From a virus, in IMG/VR virus record IMGVR_UViG_3300009506_000009, positions 34,894 through 98,893 of that record: a DNA stretch of 64,000 bases. One strand, given 5' to 3'. The position numbers were made by a program, and so were the translations under genes. Shown here piece by piece: positions 5,811 to 31,236 of the stretch. The notes under the pieces were generated by a model. The model worked only from the letters and a program-made list of their open reading frames with translations, searched no databases and had not been told where the DNA came from. Position 1 is the stretch's first letter. Each line of letters begins with the position of its first letter.

Positions 5811-5831
5811 TAAAAACTATGGAAATCATAA

Positions 5832-6170: not shown

Positions 6171-6200
6171 CTAACCTATCAATGAGTGAAGGAGATTAAA

Positions 6201-6852: not shown

Positions 6853-6934
6853 ACCAGCGTGGCGGAACTGGTTTACGCAGAGGACTTAAAACCCTCCGAC
6901 TCCGGTCATGTGGGTTCGACTCCCACCGCTGGTA
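6853..6934 (+). tRNA. tRNA-Leu(TAA)
   Basis: Loop CTTAAAA; variable arm; ACCAGCG/CGCTGGT acceptor. Confidence 0.92.
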
Positions 6935-6946
6935 CAAAGGATTAGC

Positions 6947-7845: not shown

Positions 7846-7926
7846 CCAGCATGGTGGAATTGGCAGACACAGTGTCCTCAAAAGGCACCGGGTAAAACCG
7901 TGAGAGTTCGACTCTCTCTGCTGGCA
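7845..7926 (+). tRNA. tRNA-Leu(CAA)
   Basis: Anticodon arm GTGTC-CTCAAAA-GGCAC; variable arm. Confidence 0.93.
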
Positions 7927-8820
7927 CAAAGGATCAACATGCTTCCAACACAGATTTATGATCTTGAGATTGACGTACAAGGGGTCTTCACCATGACAGG
8001 CAACTCCCCTATCCCTATTGTGGTTGGTCATATTTTCATTACATCTACTGGTATGATTGTTCGCATTACTGAGGTTGAGATAGATTTTGACACAAGAAAG
8101 ATTATGTGTAAAGCAATGTCCAACCTAATCACGTTTACAGAAATTGAAAATGGTTCAGCCTATAACTGATAAGAGAGTAGAGTGGTACTATATTTACCTA
8201 CCAGAATTAGGAACCAACCCATTAACCATATCCCTGTTATCCCGAAGAGCCGTCCCAGGATTGTTCCTAGGTTTTGATAACAGGGTTTATTTGTATTCAG
8301 AGGTTGTAGATATTAGTAACCCGCACCATCCATACATCGTATGTACACATGTTGATGGTGATCTAAAATATTTAAATGTGGAGGCCACACGTGCGAGTCA
8401 TTTACAAAGGACGGGTGATCGGGGAGTGCCCCGACGAACACAGATCAGGAGAAACTGTGCAATTAGCTGGATCGGATTACGTAATTTTATACGTAGACAA
8501 GCTAAACGATTTAGTAGCTATAGTTCAAAAGGTAGAGTGATAAATGAAGAAAGCACCTGCATACTGTTATGGAACTAGAGATGGGACCTATCTTGTTATC
8601 CGGGATTGGGGGCACGCTAGGATTGTTCCTGCTGAGGAGGCGTTGGATGGGAGGCATATTCTTCTTGTATATACCGCACTTGGGACTGCGAAGAAGGCCC
8701 TATCCTCCAGAGTAATATATCCTTTTTATCAAGACGGTAACCGTTGGCATTATAAGAATGACGGCAGTACGCCGTTGGTAACAAAGGAGCTACTTGTGAT
8801 CTTACCTCTAAAACTGACCC

Positions 8821-8849
8821 TTGACATCGAAGATTGACTGTGGTAAAAT
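8821..8849 (+). promoter_or_regulatory. sigma70 promoter
   Basis: TTGACA-17-(TGG)TAAAAT upstream of ssb. Confidence 0.8.
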
Positions 8850-8899
8850 AGTGTTGCTGTCGAAAAAATTCTAACAACTAATTAATAAGGAGCAAACAA

Positions 8900-9316
8900 A
8901 TGTCAGCACAGAATCAACTCACTTTACTTGGAAACGTTGGAGGTGAAAACACAATCCGTCAGTCTACAAACGACGAGGGTAAAGTTACCGTTATCTCGTT
9001 TTCTTTTGCTGTTAATGAGTGGAGGTACAACAAAGCTACCAACCAGAAAGAACGCATGACCGACTTCCATAACGCTCAGGCGTTCGGTTACGTGGCTGGT
9101 CGCTTGGCCCAGTTCGTTGAGCAAGGCCAAGGTCTGTTACTTCAAGGGCGACTATACAAAGACCAATACACCAACAGTGAAGGCGAACAGCGCACCGCTT
9201 ATGGTATCGAGGTCGAGGACTTCGCTCTAGTTGGTGGTGGTGGACGTGGTGCCTCACAAGATGCTGAAGAGTCGGATGCCTCATCTGGATTGGAAGAGGA
9301 TGAGTTCCCGTTCTAA
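8900..9316 (+). CDS. ssb: single-stranded DNA-binding protein
   Basis: NQLTLLGNVG OB-fold start; acidic tail EEDEFPF. Confidence 0.93.
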   Translation: MSAQNQLTLLGNVGGENTIRQSTNDEGKVTVISFSFAVNEWRYNKATNQKERMTDFHNAQAFGYVAGRLAQFVEQGQGLLLQGRLYKDQYTNSEGEQRTAYGIEVEDFALVGGGGRGASQDAEESDASSGLEEDEFPF

Positions 9317-9762
9317 CCCCTTCTCGTCACCAGAAGTAGTTGTAAATACCGTGCCCCCTACCGAACTGGATGGGGGCACATTTGCAGAGCAGATGATGTA
9401 TCACTTATATGTTGCCCTTTGGTACGCCGAGCAAAACCATGCATCAACCAGGATAACACAGCCAATCCGTCTTGCTTTACGAATGACACTAACGCTTCAC
9501 CAACGTGGTAAATACTTTGATGAACATGGTCGTATCCGGCGATCAGCTAGGAGATAAGCATGAGCACTGAAATACTTTTGAATTGGATAGCAGATACGTT
9601 TGCTAAGACTGATGTCATTGACTTATATTTTATATTATCTGACCTAGTTGATATTCCTATCAGCGAAGCTGAATTATGTGAGACTGCTTACTTTGATGCC
9701 ATGGCAAGTGAGTCTGTCAATCAATATACGGGAGACAATACACCCATTGGTAAGACAGTAAT

Positions 9763-10140
9763 ATGATCTCATTAGCAGAATACCGTAAACAAATGCGCTT
9801 CCTCGCCATTACTCGTGACGGGGGACTTTGCATGATATGCAAATGGGTCCACCATCGAGAACGGGATGCTCAGGAAGTACACCACGTGTTTGGTAGGGGG
9901 ACCAGTAATGCATCGGTCAAAGAATATTATACTTCTCTCATGAGTGTTTGTATAGAGTGTCACCCACAACCAATCCTGTTACCACCAACAATGGAATGGC
10001 AGGCTACGATCCTCAGAGTTTGGAGAAACATGAACTGTGATCATCATAATAAAACAATGTTGATTGCACCAGAACTCGTTGTTGATAACCCGGTTGGCCT
10101 ATCAAGATTTAACATAAGTGATGGTCTGATCTACGATTGA
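9763..10140 (+). CDS. HNH-like nuclease
   Basis: RDGGLCMIC...EVHHVFGRG...CIECH. Confidence 0.6.
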   Translation: MISLAEYRKQMRFLAITRDGGLCMICKWVHHRERDAQEVHHVFGRGTSNASVKEYYTSLMSVCIECHPQPILLPPTMEWQATILRVWRNMNCDHHNKTMLIAPELVVDNPVGLSRFNISDGLIYD

Positions 10141-10151
10141 AGGAAGTAAGA

Positions 10152-10721
10152 ATGAGTAAGCCGCCAGCTACCTGGAAAAAGGTAGAGTTACGGATAGCAC
10201 GATACTTAGGTGGTCAACGCCGGGGTGCGGATTTTTCGGAGAGAGATGGTTCCAATATTGGGAAAGACGATGTTATTGATGTCCCAGGTTGGGCTATAGA
10301 AATCAAGCACGCCAAAGATGCAAGCTACGGATTAGCTTGCGAGGCGTTAGATCAGGTTGATCAAGTCTATGGAGTGGTGCAAGGCGAGGCCATGCCCGTA
10401 GCAATCATCCACCGTGGGGGAACACGGATAATTGAAGAGTCAGTGGTATGCTTCAGACCCAGGAAGTTCTGGTACTTAATGGCAGAACGCCCTAACGATA
10501 GCAAGTTTACGCTAGAAGCACCTATCTACTCGTCAACCAAACCGCTGTGGAAAAATATTATATCTGGTGTAACCAAGGTAAAACAGTTTATAGATGTTCC
10601 TTGTGTCCAAGTATATAAAATAGTTATGACAGAGGAGGGTCCTGATGTATATCGGAATCCTTGCTTTGTAGCCTGCTCTCTCCCGAACTTTAAAGAGTTC
10701 ATCCTTCCTTTGCGTCAATAG
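10152..10721 (+). CDS. PD-(D/E)XK nuclease, Holliday junction resolvase-like
   Basis: WKKVELRIARYLGG...DV...AIEIK. Confidence 0.6.
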   Translation: MSKPPATWKKVELRIARYLGGQRRGADFSERDGSNIGKDDVIDVPGWAIEIKHAKDASYGLACEALDQVDQVYGVVQGEAMPVAIIHRGGTRIIEESVVCFRPRKFWYLMAERPNDSKFTLEAPIYSSTKPLWKNIISGVTKVKQFIDVPCVQVYKIVMTEEGPDVYRNPCFVACSLPNFKEFILPLRQ

Positions 10722-10779
10722 GCGCAACTACAACTGAATACCCAAGCCACCTAGTGTGGCTTTTTGTTTAGGAGTTATT

Positions 10780-12438
10780 ATGGTAGAATATACCCCTATG
10801 TCTCCGCTTAGTCCAGAAGCGGAGAATGTTTTACGGTCTCGATATTACAAAGATGGTGAAACGTCTTGGGAAGAGGTAGTGGATCGTGTGTGTGAGCATA
10901 TGCACATTACCGATAAAAGTACACATGACATGTTGTTGCATCGTTACTTTCTTCCCAATACCCCTACTCTTGTAAATGCCGGGACACAATCTGGACTGAG
11001 TGCCTGCTTTGTACTTGATATGTACGACAGCATCGAAGATATCTACTCCGTAAAGTTTGACGTTGCACGGATAGCCAGAGCAGGTGGCGGAGTTGGGATC
11101 AGTTTGTCTCACTTGAGACCGATGGACCAACCAGTAAAGGGATCGTCTCATGGTAAGGCCGCAGGTCCGGTTGCCTTTGCCAGTACAATCTCCGTAGATG
11201 CTATGATTTTGACCCAGGCGGGATCACTACGGCCTATGGCTTTGATGTTTGTCATGGATGTTAGCCACCCTGATATACGAAAATTCATCACGGCTAAATC
11301 AGAAGAGGGAGTTATCACCAATGCGAATATTAGTGTTATGGTTGACGATGAGTTTATGCTTGCTGTTATTGAGGATCGGGATTATGACCTTACGTTTGAA
11401 GGCACAGTTTACGAAACAGTAAAAGCACGAGAGCTTTTCGATCTAATCACGGAGCACACCCACAAGAACGGTGAGCCTGGACTTCTCTTCAAAGATAAGA
11501 TTAACAATAACACCCCATATAGGTATGATAATAGAGTAATCTATGCCACAAATCCTTGTGGAGAGATACCTGCTCCAGACAATGCTGTCTGCAACCTTGG
11601 TTCATTGAACCTTGCTAACTTTGTACACGAAGATGGGTATGTAGATGCGTCACTACTTTCTGATGCCACTATACGTGCGGTAAAGTTTCTGGATAACGTG
11701 ATCACTTACAATCACTATCCTACAGAGGATATACGCAACTTCGTTGAAAGGTACCGTCCTATTGGTCTAGGCGTCATGGGTGTGGCGGACATGTTTCTTA
11801 AACTTGGTGTGCGATACGGCAGTCAAGAGTCGTTGGACCTCTTGGACAGTGTCATGGAGATAATCGCTACCGTAGCCAACCAGACATCTATGGCTTTGGG
11901 AATTACACTAGGAATACCCGAAGGGTGTGAGAACTTGCCAACACCACGTCGCCACGTAACCTGGGGTTCAGTTGCGCCCACAGGCAGTATCTCTATGATA
12001 GGTGGTTGTTCTTCGGGTATCGAACCTGTTTTTTCTCCTGTCGTGTATCGTCAAGACAACACAGGGACCTACACGATACCACACCCTGATGCTGACTTAG
12101 ATTGTTTTGTTAGTGCTGTTAATTCAGACCCCTCTCGCATAGTGTCGGTAGAGGAGCACATAAAGATGCTCTCTGTGGCACAGAAACACGTTGACAGCGG
12201 CGTAAGCAAGACAATCAACCTCCCACATGAGTCTACCGTGGAAAACGTCGCAGAAGCCGTCCTGATGGCTTGGAGAGACCCTTTCATCAAAGGTACTGCA
12301 TTGTACCGTGATGGGTCCAGGGATGTGCAAGTGCTCTCATCCGTTGATCTGTGCCCTGAATGTGAGACCCCATTGGAGTCTGATGGAGGTTGTCAACACT
12401 GCCCAAGCTGTGGATGGGGAGCTTGTGCTATTTCTTGA
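10780..12438 (+). CDS. nrdJ: class II (adenosylcobalamin-dependent) ribonucleotide reductase
   Basis: PNTPTLVNAG, SACFV, TNPCGEI, APTGSIS, VSKTIN; C-terminal CPEC...CPSCGWGAC; no R2 gene nearby. Confidence 0.9.
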   Translation: MVEYTPMSPLSPEAENVLRSRYYKDGETSWEEVVDRVCEHMHITDKSTHDMLLHRYFLPNTPTLVNAGTQSGLSACFVLDMYDSIEDIYSVKFDVARIARAGGGVGISLSHLRPMDQPVKGSSHGKAAGPVAFASTISVDAMILTQAGSLRPMALMFVMDVSHPDIRKFITAKSEEGVITNANISVMVDDEFMLAVIEDRDYDLTFEGTVYETVKARELFDLITEHTHKNGEPGLLFKDKINNNTPYRYDNRVIYATNPCGEIPAPDNAVCNLGSLNLANFVHEDGYVDASLLSDATIRAVKFLDNVITYNHYPTEDIRNFVERYRPIGLGVMGVADMFLKLGVRYGSQESLDLLDSVMEIIATVANQTSMALGITLGIPEGCENLPTPRRHVTWGSVAPTGSISMIGGCSSGIEPVFSPVVYRQDNTGTYTIPHPDADLDCFVSAVNSDPSRIVSVEEHIKMLSVAQKHVDSGVSKTINLPHESTVENVAEAVLMAWRDPFIKGTALYRDGSRDVQVLSSVDLCPECETPLESDGGCQHCPSCGWGACAIS

Positions 12439-12463
12439 CAAAACAAATCAAGTGTGTTATACT
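12435..12463 (+). promoter_or_regulatory. sigma70 promoter
   Basis: TTGACA-17-(TGT)TATACT. Confidence 0.75.
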
Positions 12464-12782
12464 GTAGCCCAATGAAACCGTTGGGCTTTTTTTGTTTACC
12501 TGGAGGTTCCTATGTTGAGAGATATACTTGAGGTAATACAGGATATCTGGAATGATGCGTTTGGTAAGGCGATTGCAATTACATGTATGGTTGGGATCGT
12601 TCTAATTATTGTTCTTGGCGTGCTTGCAAGCCAGCACTCAACCAATACAATGATGCTACGTAAAACTTGTGCCGACAATGGATACCCAACCTTTCGTGAG
12701 ATTGGAGGGGAGTATTACTGTCAGAGGTTAGTTGATGGTACTGATGAGATTGTGCCTGTCACTATCTTCATAGGAGACTGAT

Positions 12783-13508
12783 ATGGCTAGTCGTGCTAAG
12801 GCTAAGAATTATACAAACAACACACGTACAACTAAATCCACTGGAAAGATCAGGCCAGAAGAGGCTCGTGTTTGGATGCTACGGTTTATGGGTTTGCTCT
12901 GGTCTCTTGGTGCCGCTGGTTTTACTATCTACTTTTCAGCCAGTGGGTTTGGTACCTTGTTTGATGGTGGACCTGTCATTAAAGCGTTTGGTGGGTTTAT
13001 TGCGTTTGGTGTTGTCTTCTGGCAACTTTACTTCTACCAGGGGTATACTGAGAACAAGACCTTCCTATCTGTAAGTGTGTTCGCTATGCTGTACTCTCTT
13101 TGGAGCACATGGATTGGACTGATGACTTTGGGCAACACAGATATGTTTGCTGAACCTATGAAGGCTCTCTGGAAGCTGTTCTTTGCTGTTCTTATTGACT
13201 GGACTGCTGAGCCTGTCTTTCTGTTTGCTGTCTTTGGTAAGGAAGCTCTTAGAGTTTCTGATGCTATTGGTGCGTTCTTTGATATCATTATCCCTGGTGA
13301 TCAGAGTGGCTTGTACAAGAAGCGGTCCTTTTCTCTCTTCAACCGAAAGAAGAACCACACACCATATACCACCCCCTCTACGGCTCCGTTACGAACTACA
13401 CCAGTTGCTGGTGGTCGTACCAACTTTAACGCTACAGCACATGGTGAGGATCGTCGCACAATCCCATCACATGTTGCTGAGTTACAGGAACGACTAAAGA
13501 GGATATAA
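12783..13508 (+). CDS. multi-pass membrane protein
   Basis: About four hydrophobic segments; GGAG RBS. Confidence 0.6.
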   Translation: MASRAKAKNYTNNTRTTKSTGKIRPEEARVWMLRFMGLLWSLGAAGFTIYFSASGFGTLFDGGPVIKAFGGFIAFGVVFWQLYFYQGYTENKTFLSVSVFAMLYSLWSTWIGLMTLGNTDMFAEPMKALWKLFFAVLIDWTAEPVFLFAVFGKEALRVSDAIGAFFDIIIPGDQSGLYKKRSFSLFNRKKNHTPYTTPSTAPLRTTPVAGGRTNFNATAHGEDRRTIPSHVAELQERLKRI

Positions 13509-14006
13509 TATATGAGCGTGATTACTGTACTATTGTTGATCTGGCTAGTTGGCTTTGCATTAACAACGTTGGCGGTTTTTTGGATAGATGGAGATGATGC
13601 AGGTCAACCAGGATGGGGATGCACCGCTCTTGTGGTCTCGGTGTTTTGGTTTGTCTTCTGGCCTTATATTGTGATAGCTCAACGTAAAAGGGAAAAGAAA
13701 CTGAGGAGGTTTATCCATGATGACCATTAAATCAGATACCTATATGCTCTGGCAGAATAATGACCCCTCCAAAGATGTCACAGTTGAAATGACTATTCGG
13801 TGGGGTATTGAGCACTTTGAACGTAAGTATCAACAGCCAGTTGTGCATATCTCATGTCATAAGCAGGTACCTCTATCGGACTTGGTGAAAACCTTTCCTG
13901 GGATCACTTTTAATCATGATGAGTCCATCTATACCACGTCCCTGCTTTACATTTATGGTAAGTTGAAACCAGAAGTAGAGCAGGAAGAATTACTCTAGGA
14001 GAAACT

Positions 14007-16682: not shown

Positions 16683-17676
16683 TCTTGTACGTAAAGCGTT
16701 TGGTCCTGAAATCGCATATCAGCTAGGAGAGGAAGGCCGATCACCGAATGTGACCTTCCTCCCTACAGGCATTGCTACACTCGATGAAGCTTTGGGGGGT
16801 GGGGTACCTGCTGGACGGATTATAGAGATTTACGGTCCTGAAAGCTCAGGAAAGACTGCCACTGCGTGTGCCATTGTGGGGTCCTTACAACGCCATGGGT
16901 ATGATGCTGTCTACGTTGATCTTGAATATTCTCTCAACCTACAGGAGGCTGACAGCAATGGAATGAGCATCGATGATGTGATTATCTCTCAGCCTGACGA
17001 TGCTCGTACAGCTATGAAAGTTATTGAAACCGTTGTTCGGGGAGCACAGAACAAAACTGTTGTCGTGCTCGATAGTGTTGCTGGCCTCGTCACACCCGCA
17101 GAGTTAGAGGCTGATCCTGGTGATGCCAGGATTGGCGAGACAGCTAGACTTATGTCTCAGATGATGCGTAAGTTGGCTGGTCCTACCAGTACTGGAGAGC
17201 ATGTGCTAATATTCACAAACCAACTACGTATGAAGATTGGTGTAATGTTTGGCAACCCGGAGACTACTACAGGGGGTCGTGCCTTGCGCTTTTGGGCGTC
17301 TCAACGGATACAGCTACTTGGTCGTCAGAAACTCATGGAAGGCAAAACCACCCCTATTGGCATTAACTGTAGGGCACGTATTGACAAAAATAAAGTAGCT
17401 CCACCATTCAAGAATGCCGACTACGTGATCCTGTTTGATGGTACCGGGATCGACCGAGTACCTGCAACCCTTACCGTTGCAAACAAGTATGGGATCGTCC
17501 GTAAGAGCGGTGGATATCACTACTACCCACCAGACGCCGAGAAGTATACTGCTTCATCGTTTGACAACATGGTGGCATGGTTGAAAGATAAAGAGCACGT
17601 AGAAGACTACCAAGAAATATACAACCAAGTTGTTGAAGCTGTAAAGCCCCCTACTATCGAAACCCCTTCTGCGTAA
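16666..17676 (+). CDS. recA: recombinase RecA
   Basis: GRIIEIYGPESSGKT, LDSVAGL, NQLRMKIGVMFGNPETTTGGRALRF, KNKVAPPF. Confidence 0.97.
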   Translation: MTATLDLVRKAFGPEIAYQLGEEGRSPNVTFLPTGIATLDEALGGGVPAGRIIEIYGPESSGKTATACAIVGSLQRHGYDAVYVDLEYSLNLQEADSNGMSIDDVIISQPDDARTAMKVIETVVRGAQNKTVVVLDSVAGLVTPAELEADPGDARIGETARLMSQMMRKLAGPTSTGEHVLIFTNQLRMKIGVMFGNPETTTGGRALRFWASQRIQLLGRQKLMEGKTTPIGINCRARIDKNKVAPPFKNADYVILFDGTGIDRVPATLTVANKYGIVRKSGGYHYYPPDAEKYTASSFDNMVAWLKDKEHVEDYQEIYNQVVEAVKPPTIETPSA

Positions 17677-17745
17677 GGGGTTTTTCTTGTTTTTCACGCC
17701 TGGGGAAGTGGTTAGTATAGGCATATCATTGGAGTGGGGGAGGGG

Positions 17746-17774
17746 TTGACAGTTGTCCTCGTATGTGATATAAT
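17746..17774 (+). promoter_or_regulatory. sigma70 promoter, leaderless transcript
   Basis: TTGACA-17-TATAAT, ATG 6 nt downstream. Confidence 0.8.
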
Positions 17775-17780
17775 GACGAC

Positions 17781-18338
17781 ATGCCCGATGGAAAGACTCA
17801 CCTAACATATAATAACCGATGGAAACCTGCCCTACTTTTTCTAGGGTCTATCTTCTTTCTATCTGTTGGCTTTGGCATGTTCCCTGATCTTCCCAGTTTA
17901 TCCTGGAAGGTAACCATCCTGGGGTATGTGGGATACTTATGTGGGATATTCATCAGCCGTTGGATTGATCCAGACTCTGACCTCATGGGTATGACAGAAT
18001 CAGAAGGTCGCTTAATGAATGAATGGCGCATCACAAAGTTTCGTTTTATCCAGGAGCTTGGTGGTGCCTTTGGTTTCTTGATCGTTTGGTGGATGCTACC
18101 TTATGCATATATCATGCGCTTCTTTGGTGGACATCGTGGACTATCCCATGTCTATGTCCTTGGGACCCTTACTAGAGTCCTCTGGTTGCTGGTCCCCATT
18201 GCCCTAGTCTGGTGGTGGTATTACTGGAGCTACCCTGAGTTTGTGACTCCCTGGCTAATTGGGGTCTTCATCGGACTATCCATAATGGATAGTCTACACG
18301 TTTGGTTAGATAATCACCCACCCAGGAGGCTAAGATGA
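17781..18338 (+). CDS. DUF2227-like metal-binding membrane protein
   Basis: MPDGKTH, DPDSD, HRGLSH, HVWLD. Confidence 0.75.
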   Translation: MPDGKTHLTYNNRWKPALLFLGSIFFLSVGFGMFPDLPSLSWKVTILGYVGYLCGIFISRWIDPDSDLMGMTESEGRLMNEWRITKFRFIQELGGAFGFLIVWWMLPYAYIMRFFGGHRGLSHVYVLGTLTRVLWLLVPIALVWWWYYWSYPEFVTPWLIGVFIGLSIMDSLHVWLDNHPPRRLR

Positions 18339-18564
18339 CAGCCCCATTTCTTCCAGACTTTCAGATTGAATTAGAGGCTGAGGACTTTACATTGTGCAGG
18401 CTAAACATAGATGTTAAACCTGTATTATGGGGAGAGTGGTATGTTAGAATAAGTGAAAAACGATGGTATGTGGTTGACTTTAAAATGGGTCATATCGCTA
18501 GAATGAAGTTGAAAAGACAGTGGTCCAGGCTAGAGGCTCTGTACCAAAAAACAAAGGAGATGAA

Positions 18565-18960
18565 ATGAAAAAGTTAGTTGGTTTGGTTATAGCATTGGTG
18601 TTGCTGTTTGGGTCGTTGACAAGTTGTATGACATCTGATGCAGATATTGCATCAAAGAACTTATCCCGGTCTGCGGATCAGTTTGAGGTTACTCGTCGGA
18701 TCGTGTTTTATAACGGGATCACTGGTGAGTATATCCTGCAACTAGAAGGGCTGTGCTCACTTGGTAATTACGATTCCGCTGGAGAACTGACGGTCACGTG
18801 TAAGACTGGACCAGACCAGTACAAGAAACACTTCCTGGGCCTATCGGATAATGTTACGTACTTCGCTGAACAGATTGACTCTGCTGGTGTCAGCCCGTAT
18901 CACTACCGAGTGATCTTCAAGCCTGCCGCAATCATCCCGGACATCGACCTGGAGCCGTAA
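18565..18960 (+). CDS. conserved phage lipoprotein
   Basis: Lipobox LTSC; RRIVFYNGITG...YKKHFLGLSDNVTYFAEQ. Confidence 0.7.
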   Translation: MKKLVGLVIALVLLFGSLTSCMTSDADIASKNLSRSADQFEVTRRIVFYNGITGEYILQLEGLCSLGNYDSAGELTVTCKTGPDQYKKHFLGLSDNVTYFAEQIDSAGVSPYHYRVIFKPAAIIPDIDLEP

Positions 18961-21938: not shown

Positions 21939-22499
21939 ATGAGTACAATCATCTTTGATGTGGATGGCACGGTCTTGGACCTGCATACCCCATGGGTAAA
22001 AGAGTATAATCGCTTGACTGGCTCTGATCTGCGGCTCCATCAGATTACTGATTGGTATATACCTCCCTTCATGCCAAAACTCTCTGAGAAAGAGATCGTA
22101 GCTATCATCGCCGACCCACTCATCTATGATGAGGTTGAACCTATCCCAGGCGTGTGGGAAGTGATTGAACAGCTTCGCAAGGAACAGCACACGGTCCTGT
22201 TTGCTTCTGATTGCTATCCTAGTTTGTTCCGGGCTAAGTTCATGTGCCTCAAACGCCATGGCTTCTTGGTTGAACGGGAAGACTTCTGGTCTGTCCCCAT
22301 CAAGTATAAGCACCTGCTGAAATGCTCTGCAATAATCGATGACCATAACGGGATAGTGAACGACCATCCTAATGGCATCCTGTATTGTCAGCCCTGGAAT
22401 AAGTGGGCGAGGATGACTCCCGGCAAACAGTTCATCTATAACTGGTTGGATGTGGACGGAGCAATTGAAACCATCTATGATGTGGTGTTTGACGACTAG
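21939..22499 (+). CDS. 5'(3')-deoxyribonucleotidase (HAD, NT5C-like)
   Basis: FDVDGTVLD, IIDD, QPWN. Confidence 0.85.
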   Translation: MSTIIFDVDGTVLDLHTPWVKEYNRLTGSDLRLHQITDWYIPPFMPKLSEKEIVAIIADPLIYDEVEPIPGVWEVIEQLRKEQHTVLFASDCYPSLFRAKFMCLKRHGFLVEREDFWSVPIKYKHLLKCSAIIDDHNGIVNDHPNGILYCQPWNKWARMTPGKQFIYNWLDVDGAIETIYDVVFDD

Positions 22500-23272
22500 G
22501 GTTTTTGAAATCCACCAACAAAAAAATTAAGGCCCCCTTTCCTTCGGGATTGGGGGTCTCTTTTTTTATTTATTTATTTCAATTTCTTTTTCTATTTTAT
22601 TTTGTTTTAAATATTTTATTGCATTTTCTAATGTGGGTATTTTCTCTTTGAGTAAGCCTAGAGATACGTTACATCCATGACACAAAACTCCTCGATACTT
22701 TCCCGTGTCATGGTCATGATCGATGCATAGCTGTTCTTCACTCCCGCATATCTCACATTGCGTAGGCATCTGCTGTAGATCAGTTAATGTCATGTTGTAC
22801 CGGGTAGCGTATACCCCCCACCCTTTATCTGTGCAGGATGTACAGTACTTTTTAGACGCAGGCTCCCCACATATCTCACAAACGACATCAAGCTCTATCT
22901 TGCCTTCTCTCTGCCACAGGTCTATGGTGCTTGAGTGCACATCGACTAGGGTTGCTAACTCCGTCCTCCGAATGTTAGGCCGTACCTCTAAAATATCCTG
23001 TGCCATCAGGAGCTTACGGTTGCAACTTTTTGATATGTTGTATAGATGGGGATCACGACTCTTTGCCCAGTAGCTTACTGATTGGGTTGAGATTCCGAAC
23101 ATTCGACTTACCTGTTCCAGGGTTAGGTTTGTGTGCAGGAATATATCTGCAACTAGCTGTTTGTATTTTGGGTGGTATGCCATACCGGACATTATACCAC
23201 AGGTGGGGGTAATTGTCAAATCGGGCCTACGGGTGGTGGTGGTCAGGGTTTTTGAAACACCACAAAAATTAA
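22498..23272. repeat. imperfect direct repeats flanking the EndoVII-type gene
   Basis: AGGGTTTTTGAAA-TCCACCAACAAAAAAATTAA (22498-22530) and AGGGTTTTTGAAA-CACCACAAAAATTAA (23245-23272). Confidence 0.75.
22566..23183 (-). CDS. HTH + endonuclease VII domain protein (homing endonuclease-like)
   Basis: Two HTH-like segments; CEICG...LCIDHDHDTGKYRGVLCHGCNVSLG; leaderless from TTGACA(23219-14)-17-TATAAT(23196-91). Confidence 0.85.
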   Translation of the reverse strand: MAYHPKYKQLVADIFLHTNLTLEQVSRMFGISTQSVSYWAKSRDPHLYNISKSCNRKLLMAQDILEVRPNIRRTELATLVDVHSSTIDLWQREGKIELDVVCEICGEPASKKYCTSCTDKGWGVYATRYNMTLTDLQQMPTQCEICGSEEQLCIDHDHDTGKYRGVLCHGCNVSLGLLKEKIPTLENAIKYLKQNKIEKEIEINK

Positions 23273-23279
23273 CTGCCAG

Positions 23280-23940
23280 GGTGCCTACTTACACGTGTAA
23301 GGCGATCAATCCGCCCAACATTGGTCCGAATTGTCCACTTCACGTCTGGATGACCCTTCGTGTCACAGTGACACTAACCCACTGCTGGACGCCTAATCGG
23401 ACGTATGCGACCGACTATATCTTATTACGTGCACGTATGCGTTAGTGTGCGTATGACACTAACTAATAATCGGACTAACATGGTCGGCAATATCCAAATA
23501 GGATGGTGTCATGCCGACACTAACCCCCCTTAGTGTTTACTTGACAATAACTCCCAGGTTGAAACATAGTGTCGCCGATACACTAACCCCCATTTTTGTC
23601 CAAACATTGTCATAATTGGACAATGCAGGTCTTATTACACCAATTCCTTTTTGAATATGACAAAGGTTGTCCGATTCACGCCTGGGTGACGCCTGGGAGA
23701 ATGGTGCGACAAATGTCATAAAAAACATGTGACAAATGACACTTGACCCATTACGAAAAAATTGGTTGAATAGTGGCAGAACCTTACCAACCCGCCTGAC
23801 CCGCTCGCTCGCTCGCACATTCGTGTGCGGTCGGGTGAGTGCGAGCGCAGGCACACACACACACTCACGGGGGCGCACCAGCCCGCCTGTGCGACGCCAC
23901 ATGCGACAGCCCGCCTAACGAGCATATACGTGAGTGTGTA
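23280..23940. repeat. non-coding tract with short iterated motifs (candidate origin or packaging/terminus region)
   Basis: ACACTAAC x4 (~23371, 23457, 23517, 23580), TAATCGGAC x2, CCCGCCT x3, alternating purine-pyrimidine runs. Confidence 0.55.
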
Positions 23941-24512
23941 CGCCACCCTACGGGTGGCAGGCAACTAGCATAACGCACATCCGTGTCCGTGAAAGCCTGC
24001 ACGCCTATAACACCCACATCCGTGACCGTGAAAGCACCCCGTAGGGGTGGCGACCAATAACCAAGTCCTACGCTAGTCACGTAGTGACTGGGTTGCGACC
24101 TTAACAACCAAGCCGTACCTGAAAGTCCCCTTTAGGGGACTGCCAATCAAGCCTTCCGCAAGGGTGACTTGTTCCAGGCAGGCGGCGGAATATCCACGCA
24201 ATCTCACCCCGTAAGGGGTGGGGCAACCACTGAGCGACGCAATAGCCAGCCGTAGGCTGAAGCTACCCCCACTGCAAGTACTGCCGTAGGCAGAGACCCT
24301 GGTGGGCAACCCAAAGCCGCACAAGCGAAGGCAACATATGTTGCCTGACTAGCAACTCACTCTCAAGTCCTTCGGACTTGGAGATGGCGACCAAACAGGC
24401 GTACCCTGCGAAGCAGAAGTGGGAGTGGGAGTTTCGCACCAAGCACTCGTAAGAGTGCTTCGCAGGCGGCTCGGATGTGCTGAGTACACACACAATTTAC
24501 CGGAGGTAAATC

Positions 24513-24698
24513 ATGTCCCCTACCAGCAAAACCTACAACGTCGTGATCACAGTCCAAAGGACTGTGGATAGTAAGTCCACCACTTTTGGTCACCCTAAGT
24601 TTCTGCCTTTGGCAGAAGCATTGCAGGTGGTTAGCGATTATGCTAATCGCTATGCTAAGCACTACTCGGTTTCTAGCACCCTAATCCCCACCCGTTAG
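24513..24698 (+). CDS. small hypothetical protein
   Basis: GGAGGT RBS within a hairpin. Confidence 0.6.
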   Translation: MSPTSKTYNVVITVQRTVDSKSTTFGHPKFLPLAEALQVVSDYANRYAKHYSVSSTLIPTR

Positions 24699-24799
24699 TC
24701 CGTAGGACTAACGATTTCACTCAGCACATCCGACCTGCTTGCGAAGCAGGCTAAGTACTTCGTACTTAGTCAACCTACCCCTAAATCGGAGATTTAGCC

Positions 24800-24928
24800 A
24801 TGAAAAAAGCACTCGTTATCGGTCTCGCAATCGTGATTATCCCCCTGCTCAACTACGTTGGGATGTCGTTGGCAGATGTCATCAATGTCCTTACGGACAT
24901 TGGCAACCAAGTACTGGCGGCTTTCTAA
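24800..24928 (+). CDS. 42-aa hydrophobic peptide
   Basis: GGAG RBS; MKKALVIGLAIVIIPLLNYVGMSLADVINVLTDIGNQVLAAF. Confidence 0.6.
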   Translation: MKKALVIGLAIVIIPLLNYVGMSLADVINVLTDIGNQVLAAF

Positions 24929-25008
24929 GCACGCCAATTTCTCAACTCAGCGTATCCGACCTGCTTGCGAAGCAAGCAGAGATCACACATTAGTCCAAGG
25001 AGTATATC

Positions 25009-25290
25009 ATGTCCACAAACCCGGAAGCCCACCTTTGGTGGAAATTTAGCGACAACTATACCGCCGCTTATTACAAGTTAGACCACAAAGTGGTCTATGT
25101 GCAAGCCAAGACCGAGACTGCCGCAGTCGCACGATTCGAGCGTGTGACAGGCTGTGACCCTTGGGTCACCCACTGCCGTTGCTGTGCAAGCCGTGACTTT
25201 CACTGGGAGCGTCTGGAAGGTACTCCCTATGGGGAGTATAGACCACAAGGTCTGTTGATCTTCGTGGATGATAGCACTGAAGTGCTATAG
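25009..25290 (+). CDS. hypothetical phage protein
   Basis: AAGGAG RBS; HCRCC motif. Confidence 0.6.
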   Translation: MSTNPEAHLWWKFSDNYTAAYYKLDHKVVYVQAKTETAAVARFERVTGCDPWVTHCRCCASRDFHWERLEGTPYGEYRPQGLLIFVDDSTEVL

Positions 25291-25300
25291 GAGATAAGCC

Positions 25301-25531
25301 ATGTACACGTATGTCATCCTGCAAGCGTATGCCGACCCTAGCGACCCGCAGTATTATACCTGCACACTCACCCGCTATGCTGGCCCAAGTAAGGCCATCG
25401 CCAACCGAACCATTGAGCAGGTTCGTAAAGAACCTGACACCGAATGGGTTGAAGTGGAAGTCTGGCAAGACACAGACAAAGTCTGTGAGTTTAGCGTGTC
25501 CCCCGATGGGGAAGTAAGCCAATTCGAGTGA
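25301..25531 (+). CDS. hypothetical protein
   Basis: AGGAG RBS. Confidence 0.6.
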   Translation: MYTYVILQAYADPSDPQYYTCTLTRYAGPSKAIANRTIEQVRKEPDTEWVEVEVWQDTDKVCEFSVSPDGEVSQFE

Positions 25532-25624
25532 CGTTTGTCATAGTCAACTAGTGACATTTGTCACTGTCCAAGTCATGCCAACCCCAGTATACTGGGGATA
25601 AATCTGCACCACAGGAGTTTAGCT

Positions 25625-26011
25625 ATGCTAAAGTTTACTCGCAAGATCGTTGTCCACGTCGTGACTGCCGAAGGCAGTCCAGAGAGCCACAAGTACTGGC
25701 GAGACCGCTTTGCGGCTTGTGCGCCAGACGGTTTCACCGTCTTCTTGCCGGAAGCCGTCGAAGGTGGGTGGCGGATGGCTGATGGCTCAGTTGTCACTGA
25801 GCCAGTGTCACTGTTCGAAGTGTGGGAACCTTCGGTTCCCCAGGTGGTCGATGTACTGACCGTTGCAAGTCAGTTGCAAACTGACGAGAACCAGGAAGCC
25901 GTGAGCGTGCAGTGGGTTTCACCCACTGGTTGGGTTGCGGCAATCTGCTTCGACAGTGCCGACTGGTTAGAGTTAGAAACTCTAATCCGGGCGGATCAAC
26001 CAGCCGACTAG
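25625..26011 (+). CDS. hypothetical protein
   Basis: AGGAG RBS; GFTV...GGW...E...QEAV pattern. Confidence 0.6.
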   Translation: MLKFTRKIVVHVVTAEGSPESHKYWRDRFAACAPDGFTVFLPEAVEGGWRMADGSVVTEPVSLFEVWEPSVPQVVDVLTVASQLQTDENQEAVSVQWVSPTGWVAAICFDSADWLELETLIRADQPAD

Positions 26012-26066
26012 TCGGCTGACAAGTACTGGGACCCCTTCGGGGGTCCCAATTTCCAGGAGTAAAATC

Positions 26067-26669
26067 ATGATCGAGAATTTGTTGGCGTTTTACGCCAAAG
26101 CACTGCCCACCGAACGTGCCCAGGCACGCTGGTATCATACCGCCCACGATGAGTGCAAGTCCGTTGCCTACGAGTTAGGCGTGCCGTTCAAACACTTCGT
26201 GTTTGCAGTGGCGGCACTGTCACCGGGGTGCTACTGGGAGCGGAACATCCTAGGGGTCGAGCAACTGGTCACCGAAGGTGACACGGGGTACGGCTATCGG
26301 CGCAACAGAGCGAAAGCTCTGGAGTGCTTAGCAGGGAACCTGCAAGCACTGCGGGGACCGAAGGTCACTCGCTTTGCGGCGAATATCCTGGACCCGGACC
26401 AACACGCCTACGATGTGGTCGTGGACATGTGGGCATGGCGTGCCTGGGAAGGGGTCGTCATTGGCGAAGCCAAGAGCCTGACCCCGAAGCAGTACGAAGC
26501 CATAGCCGAAGGCTATGTGTCGGCGGCTAAGCAAGTCGGCCTAACCCCTTCGGCCTTTCAAGCAGTCGTCTGGACCGTAACCCGGCGACTGGGCAAGTCT
26601 GCTCTGTTAGAGCAGAGATTGGAGCGTAATCGTGAGAAGCGACAAGCAAAGGTTAGCGGAGCTAACTGA
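26067..26669 (+). CDS. conserved phage protein, possible HhH-glycosylase-like fold
   Basis: WY...AALSP..WERN...GPKVTRF..NI...VVDMWAWRA...QAVVW. Confidence 0.55.
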   Translation: MIENLLAFYAKALPTERAQARWYHTAHDECKSVAYELGVPFKHFVFAVAALSPGCYWERNILGVEQLVTEGDTGYGYRRNRAKALECLAGNLQALRGPKVTRFAANILDPDQHAYDVVVDMWAWRAWEGVVIGEAKSLTPKQYEAIAEGYVSAAKQVGLTPSAFQAVVWTVTRRLGKSALLEQRLERNREKRQAKVSGAN

Positions 26670-26892
26670 GAAAGCCAACCTGATCCTGGACATCCGGGAT
26701 CGAGAGCACTTGGCAGGTGTTCCACCTGTCAACCTGGAAGGTTACGACTGGCAAGCACTTCGTGCTTACTATCGGAGCCTGACCCCTGTTATCACAGGGG
26801 ACGACCGACCGTTCAACCCCGAAGCCCACTACGGGACCCTTGGGGATTATTACGACAGTCAGGAATGACTGTCAATTTGCAGGAGTAAAGCC

Positions 26893-27219
26893 ATGACCAT
26901 CACACTGACCGCCCACGTGTTAGACCGTATTGCCGACCGACCGCTCATCAGCTATGCTGACCTGTGCAAGGCCGTTGACAACATCGAGCAGTGGATTGGC
27001 AAGTATGCCAAGTGCCGCCAAGTGGCGGTAGTACTGCGTGAGTATGACCACTGCGTGAACCTGGGGAACACCTACGGTGACCGTCTGGTTCTCGTGGTGG
27101 ATGTGGAACAGGGTACTGTTCCGACGATCTTCTGCCGCAACAAAGTCCAACGTAAGCCGCAGTCAGTCCAGGCATACGTGAACATGTACGGGTATCCGGT
27201 GCAGGCCGGACGCCGATAG
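26893..27219 (+). CDS. putative BECR-fold/DUF4258-like ribonuclease
   Basis: ITLTAHVLDRIADR N-terminus; LVLVVD...VPTIF C-terminal strands. Confidence 0.4.
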   Translation: MTITLTAHVLDRIADRPLISYADLCKAVDNIEQWIGKYAKCRQVAVVLREYDHCVNLGNTYGDRLVLVVDVEQGTVPTIFCRNKVQRKPQSVQAYVNMYGYPVQAGRR

Positions 27220-27499
27220 GAGCAAGTTATGCCACCCCTAGTTGTTGTCCCAATCCTGATTGCACTGATTGCATGGTGCATTGGCCTGCTGTCCTACTTC
27301 GTAGGGCAGTTCTTCGAAGTCGAGAGCTTTATACTTGTGAGCAAGTTCTGTAAACTGACCATTGTGCTCTGCTTTTTAGCAGAGATCGCCGTAGTTGTAT
27401 CCACCTGTTAGTCCAGCCAGACCTAAGCCAGTCGGCTTACATCGCAGTCACACGTCCCGACTGGCTAGGATTTCATCCTAGAACCGAAGGAGTAATGAG

Positions 27500-27703
27500 A
27501 TGACATATTACACAGTCGAAATCCGCAGTGACGGTGAAACCGTCATGATAGGACGTACACCAGGGTTGGACACAGCCCTGCTCACCGTGCACACCAACCT
27601 GAAGCACTACGGGGGATTGGTCAAGCCCGTGCGTAACGTCAAGCACCGATGGGTGGGGTACGTTGATGGGCACACCATCGCCATCCAGGTAACACAGGCG
27701 TAA
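27500..27703 (+). CDS. hypothetical protein
   Basis: AAGGAG RBS. Confidence 0.55.
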   Translation: MTYYTVEIRSDGETVMIGRTPGLDTALLTVHTNLKHYGGLVKPVRNVKHRWVGYVDGHTIAIQVTQA

Positions 27704-27710
27704 GTACTGG

Positions 27711-27822
27711 CTGGTGCTTCGCTCTCCGCCGACCCTATTGGGGTAGCCTACCAAGGCATGGGCGATGATGGACGACCCCCAGGCGTCCGGGGCGGACAGC
27801 GGGGCATCAGTTTTATTTTTTT
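27711..27822 (+). ncRNA. multibranch structured RNA followed by a U-tract
   Basis: CTGGTGC/GCATCAG, TTCGCT/AGCGGG, TCCGCC/GGCGGA nested stems with internal hairpins; TTTTATTTTTTTT after. Confidence 0.5.
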
Positions 27823-28819
27823 TCTCTCGTGTGTACATGTGCGTACACGTATTGGGTTTTTTAGAGTACTTTGCGGGGTCCCTTTTCCGGTCCCTATAGG
27901 AGAGTGAGTGATGAAAGTCGGACGTATTGCAGTAAACGCCCAATGTTTCTTGGGCAACCTTCCCTTCCAGGCTGTAAGCCTTCCCGAAAGTCTGGCACAC
28001 TGGAAGTTCTACCTGGACACACACATGTCCATCATCGAGACCCCTGGTCTCAGCTTCACGGATTGGAACCTGGGCAACGACTGCTTTGGGTTCTACTTTT
28101 GGGATACCGAAGGCAACGACATCACCACGCAAGCACTGGCACAGATCAGCGACGTGCACTTGCGCCTATATGCTGGTTGTCGGTCAGCCTGCCTAGTTTT
28201 CCACCTTACCGAAGGTAACCACACAGATCAGGCATGGGTTTGGTTCCAAGCCTGCACCATCCGATAGGAGAGTATCATGTTGACAGTTTCGAAAGTTCGT
28301 GTTACCCTTAAGGGTAAGCAAGCAGTGAAGGCAGTATTCACCACCACAGGTGAGTACTTCACCTTCCGCTATGGGTCATGGATGACCCCTGGCTCCATCC
28401 TGCACCTGGACAGTGCGGGTAAGCCTGTCCGTGGTGACATCCGCAGGGGTGAGGACGCAGATGGACCCATCTTCACCGAAGGTGTGGCCTTGTGGCCCAT
28501 CTAAGTACAGGCAGGGGTCGAAGGACCCCTGATTTCGGACCATTCAACCTAATGAGTACAAAGGAGTAGATCATGAGAAACGTTTACGGAGTACGCTGTG
28601 GTAGTGAGAGTATGTACGGGCATGTGATCTGTGTGGTCGCCGCTGAAAGCGTAACAGAAGCACGTGATGTAGTTCGCAAATCACAGGAGTACGCCACACT
28701 CAACAAGCAATGGCAAGTATACTGCACATCGCTGAATGCAGTCAATGGTCCCTTCGGGATCACTAGTCAGGAAACAGGTGTTTTACACACCTATCCAGAG
28801 TTAAATTAGGAGATTACAC

Positions 28820-29266
28820 ATGTTAACTTTAGTTCCAGCATACGGTCGTGATTACAAAAGCAAGGCGGCAGTCCAGGCGGACCTGGACGCAGGCAAGGAC
28901 TTCGAAGTAGTCTGGACGCCTGTCGATCCTGGTGGGTACGCAACTGCGTCGGACCTGTTAGAAGACGGGCACACTCAGGTGCGGGTGCGCTACCAGCGTA
29001 AGACCAAGGTGGGAGTGTTTACACTCCATGAGCCTGAGCCATATGACAAGGGTCTTGAGCAGGGGGCAACGAACCTGGAAGAGTTCGTCAACACGTACAT
29101 CAGTACGCCAGTAGCCTGGGCGACCATGTTCTTGATAGATCATGACAAAGACATCCAGAAAATGCTTGATGATGGGGATGGTAGTGAGTATGAGAAGAGT
29201 TCTTTCAAAGACATGATTGCTGAGTTGGCAGACGCCCTGCAACAATGGGCAGAAGATGAGGAGTAA
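28820..29266 (+). CDS. conserved phage protein
   Basis: LVPAYGRDYKSKAAVQADLDAGKDF. Confidence 0.6.
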   Translation: MLTLVPAYGRDYKSKAAVQADLDAGKDFEVVWTPVDPGGYATASDLLEDGHTQVRVRYQRKTKVGVFTLHEPEPYDKGLEQGATNLEEFVNTYISTPVAWATMFLIDHDKDIQKMLDDGDGSEYEKSSFKDMIAELADALQQWAEDEE

Positions 29267-29275
29267 GGAGTAAAC

Positions 29276-30664
29276 ATGCACTGGATACAAACCCCACAAG
29301 CAATACGTGACTTCGCCCTTATGCTCAGCATCGCTTTCGGTGCTGAGACCTGGGTGGTTGGGGGCGCATGCCGGGATACAGTCCTGGGTGACACCCCACA
29401 TGACATCGACATCGAGATCACTGGGTTGAGTGAGTACAACTTGACCCACTTGCCCTTCGCTCAGGTAATACCTGGGGGTGATCGGTTCGGTGTTTGGATT
29501 GTGACCTTCCACGATGAGACCTTCGAAGTGGCACTGCCACAAACCCGTGAGCGTGTGGGTGATGGTCACTCAGGCGAGATCGCACACATCGACCCGAACC
29601 TGCCCATTGAGCAGAGCTTAGCACGCCGAGACTTCACGGCTAACGCCATCGCCTGGAATGTGCTGACCGAAGAGATCGTTGATCCCTTCGACGGGATTGA
29701 TGACATCCACACTGGCATCTTACGGGCAGTGAATGCAGGCAACTTCGCTGATGACCCACTGAGAGTACTACGTGGTGTGCAGTTAGCATCACGCACTGGG
29801 CTGGTCCCTGATTGCCCAACGGTATCCGCCGCACAAGCACAGATCGGCGGGTTCAGTGCCCTGAGTTCGGATCGTGTGCGCCAGGAGTGGGTGAAGTGGG
29901 CGCAAGGTTCAACCCCTGCACTGGGCATCAAGTTCCTGGTCGAGTGTGGTTGGATCGAGTGCTTCCCATCGCTGAATGCCTTACGTGAGACGGAGCAGGA
30001 CCCCATCTGGCATCCCGAAGGGGACGCCTTGACCCACACAATCTTTGCCCTGGAAGTCCAGCCAAGCTGTGACCCCATCATCAACTGGGCAATCCTACTG
30101 CACGACATTGCCAAGCCACACTGCACGGCTACTCGTGAAGATGGACGCATCATCAGCCCCGGTCATGACCAACTGGGTGCGGACATGATCCCGGATGTAC
30201 TACGTGAGTTCGGGTTCGAGATACACGGACGCATCCCGGAGTGGGTGCAGGCAGTGCAGGCCATCGTTCGGGAGCACATGTGGGCGGCAAGCCTGAGTGG
30301 TGCACCTGGACACCGTGGTGTACGACGCTTAGCACGACGCTTAGCACCTGCCACTGTTCGTCAGTGGGGTGCTGTCTGCTTAGCAGATGTGGGTGGTCGA
30401 GCAATTGCTCGGAGTGAGAGAAACTCACTGATTGACACCATCCTGGATGTAGCCGAAGACGCTACCAGCCTGGGCATCGTAGATGACGGGCCTGCCAAGA
30501 TCGTCACGGGCAAGTTGCTGATCGAGCATGACATCATCGAGCCTGGAATTGCCATGGGCAAGCTGATCGACCTGCTGTTTGAGCTACAGCTAGACGGATG
30601 GTTCACGGACGAAGAGATCGGGCTACAGTTTGCACGTGAGTTAGTCGAGAACGTGCAGTTATGA
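29276..30664 (+). CDS. cca: class II tRNA nucleotidyltransferase (CCA-adding) with HD domain
   Basis: VVGGACRD, DIDIE, EVALPQTRE, RRDFTANA, DPLRVLRG, HPEGDALTHT, LLHDIAK. Confidence 0.92.
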   Translation: MHWIQTPQAIRDFALMLSIAFGAETWVVGGACRDTVLGDTPHDIDIEITGLSEYNLTHLPFAQVIPGGDRFGVWIVTFHDETFEVALPQTRERVGDGHSGEIAHIDPNLPIEQSLARRDFTANAIAWNVLTEEIVDPFDGIDDIHTGILRAVNAGNFADDPLRVLRGVQLASRTGLVPDCPTVSAAQAQIGGFSALSSDRVRQEWVKWAQGSTPALGIKFLVECGWIECFPSLNALRETEQDPIWHPEGDALTHTIFALEVQPSCDPIINWAILLHDIAKPHCTATREDGRIISPGHDQLGADMIPDVLREFGFEIHGRIPEWVQAVQAIVREHMWAASLSGAPGHRGVRRLARRLAPATVRQWGAVCLADVGGRAIARSERNSLIDTILDVAEDATSLGIVDDGPAKIVTGKLLIEHDIIEPGIAMGKLIDLLFELQLDGWFTDEEIGLQFARELVENVQL

Positions 30665-30711
30665 GAACGGGCTAGTCTCAATTGAGACTAGCCATTTCCC
30701 GGAGGTGAGAG

Positions 30712-31236
30712 ATGACAGTTACAAACACAAACAACGTAGTTGGTATCACATTGGCCTTGCAATACCCATACTTTTGGGAACACAAACCTATGCCCAAGGA
30801 GTTTGATCTTGATTACTTAGCCCACCAACGAGTACAGAAGATCATCAAGAGCATGGGCATGCGGTACGACCTGTGGGAAGGTGGCGCACAGGATAGTGCC
30901 TACTACACACTCAAAGACCTTCCAAAAGGATTGACCTGGGACGAAGCCATCGAAGCAGTTGAAATTGCATGGTTCGATACGCCTACTGATCACCCAATTA
31001 TGTACTGCCATGAGTGTGAACAGTTTACACAATGGACTATCCCAACCTTCCATCTCAAATGCACAGTGTGTGGTGAGTGGCAATACGGCGAGAGTGAAGA
31101 GTACTTACTAGAAGAACACCCGCTTGAGTATTGGACAGAAGACAACACTATGTTAGAAGAGTGGGAGAAGTTTGGTCCACAGGAAGATGGAGAAATGAAG
31201 GAGTACGGTAATGGAAACAGACCAGTTGATCGTTGA
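30712..31236 (+). CDS. hypothetical protein with Zn ribbon
   Basis: CHEC...CTVCG; GGAGGT RBS. Confidence 0.55.
   Translation: MTVTNTNNVVGITLALQYPYFWEHKPMPKEFDLDYLAHQRVQKIIKSMGMRYDLWEGGAQDSAYYTLKDLPKGLTWDEAIEAVEIAWFDTPTDHPIMYCHECEQFTQWTIPTFHLKCTVCGEWQYGESEEYLLEEHPLEYWTEDNTMLEEWEKFGPQEDGEMKEYGNGNRPVDR

Follow-up and report, generated by a model that had tools for sequence, protein, structure and literature searches.

A dense array of minimal perfect hairpins overlies the first early operon of an uncultured siphovirus-like phage

The last 64 kilobases (kb) of one 98,893-base-pair (bp) virus record, IMG/VR record IMGVR_UViG_3300009506_000009 (positions 34,894 to 98,893; this whole 64,000-nucleotide (nt) stretch is called the window, and positions below refer to it unless stated otherwise), contain an array of roughly 55-70 tiny perfect palindromes that lies over the first early operon of the phage, that is, over an untranslated leader and the nine genes that follow it. 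The existence of the array, its extent, the design of its hairpins, its overlay on genes and the conservation of its density without conservation of position are all directly supported by the sequences, and the array is either selected or continuously regenerated. We tentatively favour the reading that it is a collectively acting array of hairpins or cruciforms at the level of DNA, an explanation that we regard as plausible, if not quite probable. The phage, uncultured and siphovirus-like, has a genome of about 99 kb with many tRNA genes. Unless stated otherwise, a hairpin was counted when it had a perfect stem of at least 6 bp and a loop of 3-4 nt.

A first-pass annotation of the window had described an array of about 1 kb at 23942-24979, heading the early region. 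All the hairpins that it listed are present: GTA loops at 24035, 24075, 24247, 24281 and 24693, GAA loops at 24406 (with a 4-bp stem only) and 24961, GGA loops at 24495 and 24781, TAC or TTC loops, belonging to the minus strand, at 23942, 24364 and 24751, and GTAA loops at 24205, 24441 and, on the minus strand, 24883. This 1,038-nt segment holds 21 hairpins with stems of at least 5 bp, 18 with at least 6 bp and 15 with at least 7 bp, compared with means of 1.99, 0.50 (maximum 3) and 0.17, respectively, in 200 dinucleotide shuffles. The size and placement first proposed did not hold. The genome-wide profile shows a single outstanding peak that is far broader than 1 kb, with a dense part (~23800-27700, ~13.5 hairpins per kb) and a tail that reaches background by about 29.3 kb, and most of the array lies inside real genes rather than ahead of them. 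Between 23800 and 28900, we counted 58 hairpins against 2.8 in shuffles, and 40 against 0.55 when stems of at least 7 bp were required, whereas the remaining 93.8 kb of the genome carry 1.0 and 0.36 per kb at the same two thresholds. The observation of the first-pass annotation is confirmed, and the enrichment is at least 20-fold over both the shuffles and the remaining genome.

Regular spacing of the hairpins was rejected, as the coefficient of variation is not below that of random non-overlapping placement. An origin in tandem or interspersed repeats was rejected as well, since Tandem Repeats Finder (TRF) returned trivial repeats only and the stems are mostly unrelated. Neither can base composition be the cause: the guanine-plus-cytosine (GC) fraction is 0.541 inside the hairpins and also outside them, so that the raised GC of the block does not account for the array. 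As a separate observation, GC is 0.53-0.57 at 24000-31000 compared with ~0.45 in the remaining genome, and the stems are not responsible for this rise. The GC of the early operon may perhaps be tuned to host tRNAs, as the operon would be translated before the large tRNA set of the phage itself is made.

The hairpins follow a narrow design. Enrichment is confined to the smallest loops, with 33 loops of 3 nt and 25 of 4 nt, each against 1.4 expected, while the counts for loops of 5-12 nt hardly differ from background. Stems of 6 bp (n = 19), 7 bp (n = 25), 8 bp (n = 11) and 9 bp (n = 4) were found, and none of 10 bp. They are strictly Watson-Crick and end abruptly; an internal mismatch is crossed in two stems of the window and in one stem of L001, a syntenic metagenome contig described below, and an internal G-T pair occurs in just 3 stems. 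Taking the arrays of the window and L001 together, 37 of the 52 triloops (71%) read GNA on one strand or the other, compared with 3 of 29 elsewhere in the window (Fisher p 1e-7), and these GNA loops are divided between the strands, 18 on the plus and 19 on the minus. Within 23800-29100 alone, GNA is found on either strand in 23 of 33 triloops. Closure by 5'C-G3' is seen in 57 of 88 array hairpins against 23 of 60 outside, and the heptamer GCGAAGC occurs 10 times in the 64-kb window, 6 of them in the array. The C-GNA-G loop rule of the first-pass annotation thus describes most triloops but not all of them, applies to both strands equally, and leaves aside the nearly half of the hairpins that have 4-nt loops. 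The flanks share no sequence, with an information content of 0.0-0.1 bit in the 15 nt on each side of 59 hairpins.

Most of the array is written into coding sequence. The nine early genes on the plus strand encode proteins of 61, 42, 93, 76, 128, 200, 108, 60 and 67 amino acids (aa); their open reading frames (ORFs) are tightly packed, and every one has a GGAG-type Shine-Dalgarno sequence at the proper distance from its start codon. The gene at 26067-26669 is a member of DUF7178 (PF23802, E 4e-35) and carries 11.6 hairpins per kb, compared with 1.2 on average and at most 3.9 in 28 homologues of other phages. Twenty-seven hairpins lie fully inside the nine coding sequences. When synonymous codons were shuffled with all proteins kept, the count was 2.4, and it was 1.1 when the order of codons was shuffled. 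The palindromes thus result from a specific selection of codons, and, as the alignment with L001 shows, residues too have sometimes been bent to fit them. Another effect of the palindromes is a large number of spurious ORFs (40-230 aa) on the minus strand between 23700 and 29600, for example at 27473-28159 and 28958-29569, and such antisense ORFs would mislead automatic gene callers.

The one relative that we studied, L001, is a metagenome contig of 4,538 bp. It encodes, in the same place, a homologue (46% identity) of the divergent nuclease found upstream of the array in the window, and its DUF7178 gene is 57% identical. Downstream of the conserved control elements described below, L001 carries 30 hairpins, 28 of which fall between ~1950 and 4100, across small genes and a leader of ~1 kb. 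The two arrays gave no alignment of their primary sequences. Within the shared DUF7178 gene most hairpins are at different or shifted positions, and a few stems, such as CACCCC and AAGTCC, recur in L001 with other or flipped loops. One hairpin is apparently homologous (24751 in the window, 2338 in L001) and shows a paired change from A-T to C-G. The leaders also differ in polarity: the window favours GTA on the plus strand, whereas L001 favours TTC, i.e. GAA on the minus strand, which argues that no single strand matters. Density and design are thus conserved between the two, and individual hairpins and their polarity are not.

This turnover of positions under a persisting density is also what one would see if the array were a functionless by-product of mutation. 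A segment that is often single-stranded, because of heavy transcription or a replication start, would then undergo template switching ('quasi-palindrome correction') that perfects near-palindromes, and switching would favour whichever loops are the best DNA folders on the exposed strand. The strand symmetry of the loops and a spacing no more regular than random agree with this explanation, as does the recurrence of identical stems with different or flipped loops: a few stem 6-mers recur, 19 pairs of stems share one against 2.8 expected, and GACGGT, for instance, encloses TTC at 25726 and GAA at 27529. On the other hand, coding and non-coding densities are equal even though such changes affect codons and at times residues. 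The distribution of stem lengths has its peak at 7 bp and stops sharply at 9, and hairpins with one mismatch, which decay should produce, are very scarce. Moreover, nothing similar was seen at 103 other viral loci or in the remaining genome of this phage. We consider a purely mutational origin improbable.

The reading that we favour, a collectively acting array at the level of DNA, starts from the chemistry of the loops. GNA loops in DNA with C:G closure combine exceptional stability with nuclease resistance and do not bind single-stranded DNA-binding protein (SSB), and TTC loops lack these properties (PMC3201870, PMC13037366). In their design the hairpins resemble DNA mini-hairpins and not a folded RNA, which leads us to regard DNA as the relevant molecule. 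The DNA-level structure suggested by the first-pass annotation is the reading that the design supports best, through the minimal loops, the equal use of GNA on both strands, mostly with C:G closure, the scarcity of G-U pairs and the equal folding of the two strands, although the N4-type promoters offered as one form of it fail, as discussed below. An RNA corresponds to one strand, and a role in RNA therefore leaves unexplained both the half of the optimised loops that lies on the untranscribed strand and the switch of polarity between the relatives. Given unconserved flanks and shifting positions, the hairpins must work as a group, and the equal density in leader and genes, together with its maintenance in L001, argues for a selected set-point.

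Under the DNA-level reading, unwinding or negative supercoiling of the segment shortly after entry would make both strands fold at once into stable and compact hairpins, or into small cruciforms, by the same physics as in the promoter hairpins of phage N4, which have stems of 5-7 bp and extrude at physiological supercoiling (PMC4496689). The elements would act jointly, as a bulk property of the segment and not as individually read signals. Exposed strands might in this way be kept folded and resistant to nucleases and SSB, or superhelical stress might be absorbed. We infer that the array folds as DNA in vivo, at about this stage and with an effect of this kind.

Several observations weigh against this reading. 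A uniform density over 3.9 kb poorly matches supercoiling that is concentrated near a promoter, the extrusion in vivo of palindromes as short as these is presumed by analogy, and no reader protein was identified in the record. The array starts just past a conserved promoter-like site and falls at a T-rich zone, and since it thereby overlaps with one apparent transcription unit, the simplest explanation of its extent would be a role in the transcript. Individual hairpins point the same way: the loops of perfect hairpins hold the Shine-Dalgarno sequences of gene 1 (24495-24511) and gene 2 (24781-24797) and the start codon of gene 5 (25618-25632). In addition, tetraloops of the GNRA or UUCG type number 6 on the plus strand and 1 on the minus strand, and the imperfect stems show a plus-strand bias, with 3 G-T and 0 A-C mismatches and stem extensions of +12 versus +6.

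These points would fit a role at the level of RNA, in which the hairpins stud the immediate-early transcript, both leader and mRNA. They could block Rho loading or R-loops, slow RNases, or hide the RNA from RNA-guided or single-strand-specific defences, and the DNA-type bias of the loops would be a by-product of how such palindromes arise. The equal density of leader and genes within one apparent transcription unit would be expected of such a role, the long C-rich leader would favour Rho, and Shine-Dalgarno and AUG sequences are kept in loops or unpaired in the three hairpins just named. Furthermore, the longer intergenic stems are followed by ATTTC, resembling RNA hairpins at gene ends, and the slight plus-strand excess of G-T pairs and of GNRA/UUCG tetraloops is in line with a function in RNA. 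Against it, on the RNA strand half of the triloops with the bias read UNC. To our knowledge the UNC triloop has no special stability in RNA, and Turner-type models give triloops no sequence bonus. The orientation of the loops is reversed in the leader of L001, and the features typical of selected RNA structure, namely loops of 5-8 nt, bulges and G-U pairs, are not enriched. The two strands of the array fold equally well as RNA (-39.4 kcal/mol per 120 nt for the plus strand and -40.0 kcal/mol for the minus strand), unlike most control regions, in which the plus strand folds better; for the leader the folding z-scores are -7.6 (plus) and -5.4 (minus). Rfam matches in the window were tRNAs only, with none to the array, and an RNA with G-U covariation and variable loops, the finding that according to the first-pass annotation would have spoken for a large noncoding RNA, was not seen. 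Intrinsic terminators were rejected as an identity for the hairpins, as terminator-like sites number 10 against 8.3 in shuffles and the array hairpins have no T-runs. Overall, we consider a primary role in RNA somewhat unlikely.

The hairpins might instead be individually read start signals, either promoters of the N4 type, as the first-pass annotation had proposed, or priming signals of the kind found at G4 oric and RSF1010 ssiA, used by a Prim-Pol protein or by the host primase. The stems of 6-9 bp with GNA triloops do resemble N4 early promoters P1-P3, which also have short stems (5-7 bp), 3-nt loops with a sheared G:A pair and C:G closure, and lie in early DNA. In N4, however, there are three promoters, all conserved from -17 to +1, intergenic, with GNA on the template strand, and served by a virion RNA polymerase of 3500 aa. 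Here, more than 55 hairpins with unconserved flanks lie in random orientation, mostly inside genes. No RNA polymerase of the T7/N4 type was found: PF00940 had no match in the 98.9-kb record, which is 68% complete, with control genomes uninformative for this family and two proteins of 956 and 1449 aa having no family match. Of the HUH families, Y1_Tnp, Phage_GPA and Rep_1 were searched for in the record and none was found. The d(GCGAAGC) and d(C-GNA-G) elements of G4 oric and ssiA share the chemistry of loop and closing pair with the array (PMC13037366), but they are single, specific signals of single-stranded replicons, in contrast to a 4-kb array of unrelated stems over the genes of a double-stranded phage genome.

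Two further features bear on start signals. The phage encodes a Prim-Pol domain (archaeo-eukaryotic primase type) with winged-helix DNA-binding motifs, in a gene at 17312-18781 (plus strand, genome coordinates); its product might act as a reader of folded single-stranded DNA. The 98.9-kb genome contains exactly three copies of a 30-nt word with GCGAAGC at its end, all next to the first three genes (Table 1). This word is not present in the 4,538 bp of L001, and its three copies differ in orientation, which does not suit a common start signal. In plus-strand RNA, either direct copy could form a duplex of ~29 bp with the inverted copy, and this pairing would bracket gene 1, or genes 1 and 2. Such a duplex would be a candidate RNase III or switch structure; the three copies might alternatively serve as a signal in DNA. 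Taken as an explanation of the whole array, individually read start signals are very unlikely in our judgement.

Other known systems resemble the array in part. The palindromes in coding sequences of Nematomorpha mitochondria (PMC6649704) are likewise perfect inverted repeats inside protein-coding sequence, under a double constraint; their arms reach 284 bp and they belong to animal mitochondria, whereas here the arms are 6-9 bp, the loops are minimal and of the GNA type, and the setting is an early operon and leader of a phage. The first-step-transfer region of phage T5 is also an early segment with small early genes, and the 5'-nucleotidase gene near the array recalls the T5 pre-early gene dmp. 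A T5-like injection-stop region was nevertheless rejected as dissimilar, as T5 bases 1-14000 hold 0-5 hairpins per kb and no GNA bias. T4-like phages carry intercistronic RNA hairpins with C(UUCG)G or GNRA loops. Hairpins of this type are present in the window, with a C-UUCG-G loop on a 9-bp stem at 26027 and the C-GUAA-G stems at 24205 and 24441, but they are a small minority, and the bulk of the array consists of triloops of either polarity inside genes.

The array is preceded by a control region that is partly conserved in L001 (Table 1). The nuclease domain of the divergent gene is located at the extreme C-terminus of its product, and from its sequence the protein looks more like a site-specific nicking or homing-type enzyme than like the T4 endonuclease VII dimer. 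The ACACTAAC and GTTAGTGT words between this gene and the array are candidate operators, iterons or terminase-binding sites. The block next to them contains a duplicated ACGCCTGGG word and operator-like CGACAAATGTCA words, and the ACACTAAC repeats, the duplicated ACGCCTGGG word, the CGACAAATGTCA words and the TTGAC of the -35 hexamer are all kept in L001. A sigma70-like early promoter is predicted directly downstream of this block; direct reading of the L001 sequence gives TTGACA, 18 nt and TAAACT for its counterpart. A second candidate promoter is found at 23541-23570. The first-pass annotation had overlooked this conserved candidate promoter and placed the array at the head of the early region; more exactly, the array overlies the first early operon, downstream of the candidate promoter. 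The same annotation had seen no intergenic consensus sigma70 promoter from the array to ~32.7 kb, and this agrees with our promoter scan, in which the next strong plus-strand site after the early promoter is at 32755. The leader of 733 nt is untranslated and C-rich, with no ORF preceded by a Shine-Dalgarno sequence. At the other end of the unit, the terminator-like fold of the T-rich zone is weak (z +1.4), and a terminator is not established there.

Table 1. Features of the control region, the hairpin array and its surroundings (window positions)
Feature	Position	Strand	Details
NT5C-family 5'-deoxynucleotidase gene	21939-22499	+	just left of the control region
Divergent gene with two helix-turn-helix motifs and Endonuclease_7 (HNH-type)	22566-23150	-	PF02945, E 2e-15; weak helix-turn-helix matches
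Perfect sigma70-type promoter, predicted for the nuclease gene (TTGACA, 17 nt, TG, TATAAT)	23191-23219	-	scan, 12/12 matches
ACACTAAC / GTTAGTGT repeats	23360-23590	both orientations	inverted repeats I1-I4, I9; motif kept in L001 (1259-1340)
Block ~80% identical to L001	23667-23741	+	blastn and alignment; direct repeats D4, D8
Candidate early promoter (-35 TTGACC, extended -10 TGgTTGAAT)	23743-23771	+	-35 conserved in L001 alignment
Upstream genes and divergent regulatory region			1.3-1.8 hairpins/kb
Leader	23780-24512		10 hairpins, 13.6/kb
30-nt word ending in GCGAAGC, inverted copy	24456-24485	-	
Nine genes	24513-27703	+	43 hairpins, 13.5/kb
30-nt word, direct copy 1	24719-24748	+	between genes 1 and 2
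30-nt word, direct copy 2	24945-24974	+	between genes 2 and 3
T-rich, terminator-like zone	27785-27870	+	scan match at 27829-27850; hairpin density falls after it
Array tail	27908-29266 (1.36 kb)	+	6 hairpins, 4.4/kb
Region beyond the tail	beyond 29267		1.2-1.7 hairpins/kb

The record is classed as linear in IMG/VR, with a completeness of 68% according to CheckV. The genome encodes a tape-measure protein, portal, protease, major head protein and large terminase, a family A DNA polymerase, ribonucleotide reductase, RtcB and a CCA-adding enzyme, together with a large tRNA cluster. No close relative was found among 50,697 deposited phage records: the DNA polymerase has at most 30% identity to that of any of these phages, and a blastn search with 23500-25500 of the window gave zero matches to them. 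Single-query searches of IMG/VR with the CCA-adding enzyme and DUF7178 proteins returned no relatives, and two conserved intergenic words had zero matches there.

The array is tied neither to DUF7178 nor to the Endonuclease_7 gene. Nothing similar was seen at 23 IMG/VR, 2 mycobacteriophage and 6 metagenome loci carrying DUF7178, so a link to this gene was rejected. A link to the Endonuclease_7 gene was rejected too, as 80 viral loci (819 kb) selected by the nuclease domain hold at most 6-8 hairpins per 2 kb; the 10-11 hairpins apparent at some of these loci are artefacts of A-run/T-run terminators. One neighbouring observation concerns Mycobacterium phage Rockstar (NC_042036.1), which has eight hairpins of 7-13 bp at 35-341 of locus L012, in the last 350 bp of the genome at the right cos end. 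Several of them have GAA, TTC or TAC triloops, and they are packed between the genome end and an early operon that begins with small genes and DUF7178; the mycobacteriophage DUF7178 genes themselves are not hairpin-rich. Full-text literature searches yielded no account of arrays like this one in phages. A survey of inverted repeats across the tree of life used arms of at least 10 bp (PMC13155455), and arrays of this kind would be missed by published surveys with that threshold.

It is conceivable, though we think it doubtful, that diverse mini-hairpin arrays over the first-expressed, perhaps first-entering, few kilobases and the genes in them are a general and undescribed signal of phage genomes, a structural code that would act through both-strand hairpin density at DNA entry or first transcription, with this phage and L001 as one of several independent lineages. 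Candidate roles for such a signal are the shielding of unwound DNA from host nucleases or sensors, and the control of DNA topology or entry. The finding is also relevant to the conflict between phage and host, in which palindromes act as triggers of defence: phage palindromes can trigger Lamassu/DdmABC, and palindromes are known triggers of SbcCD as well (PMC11707656). It further matters for gene annotation and for the design of recoded phages. If the array is selected, 4 kb of this genome carry two superimposed codes, one for proteins and one for hairpins that dictates synonymous and even amino-acid choices, and this would imply that some step early in infection senses or makes use of folded DNA (or RNA).

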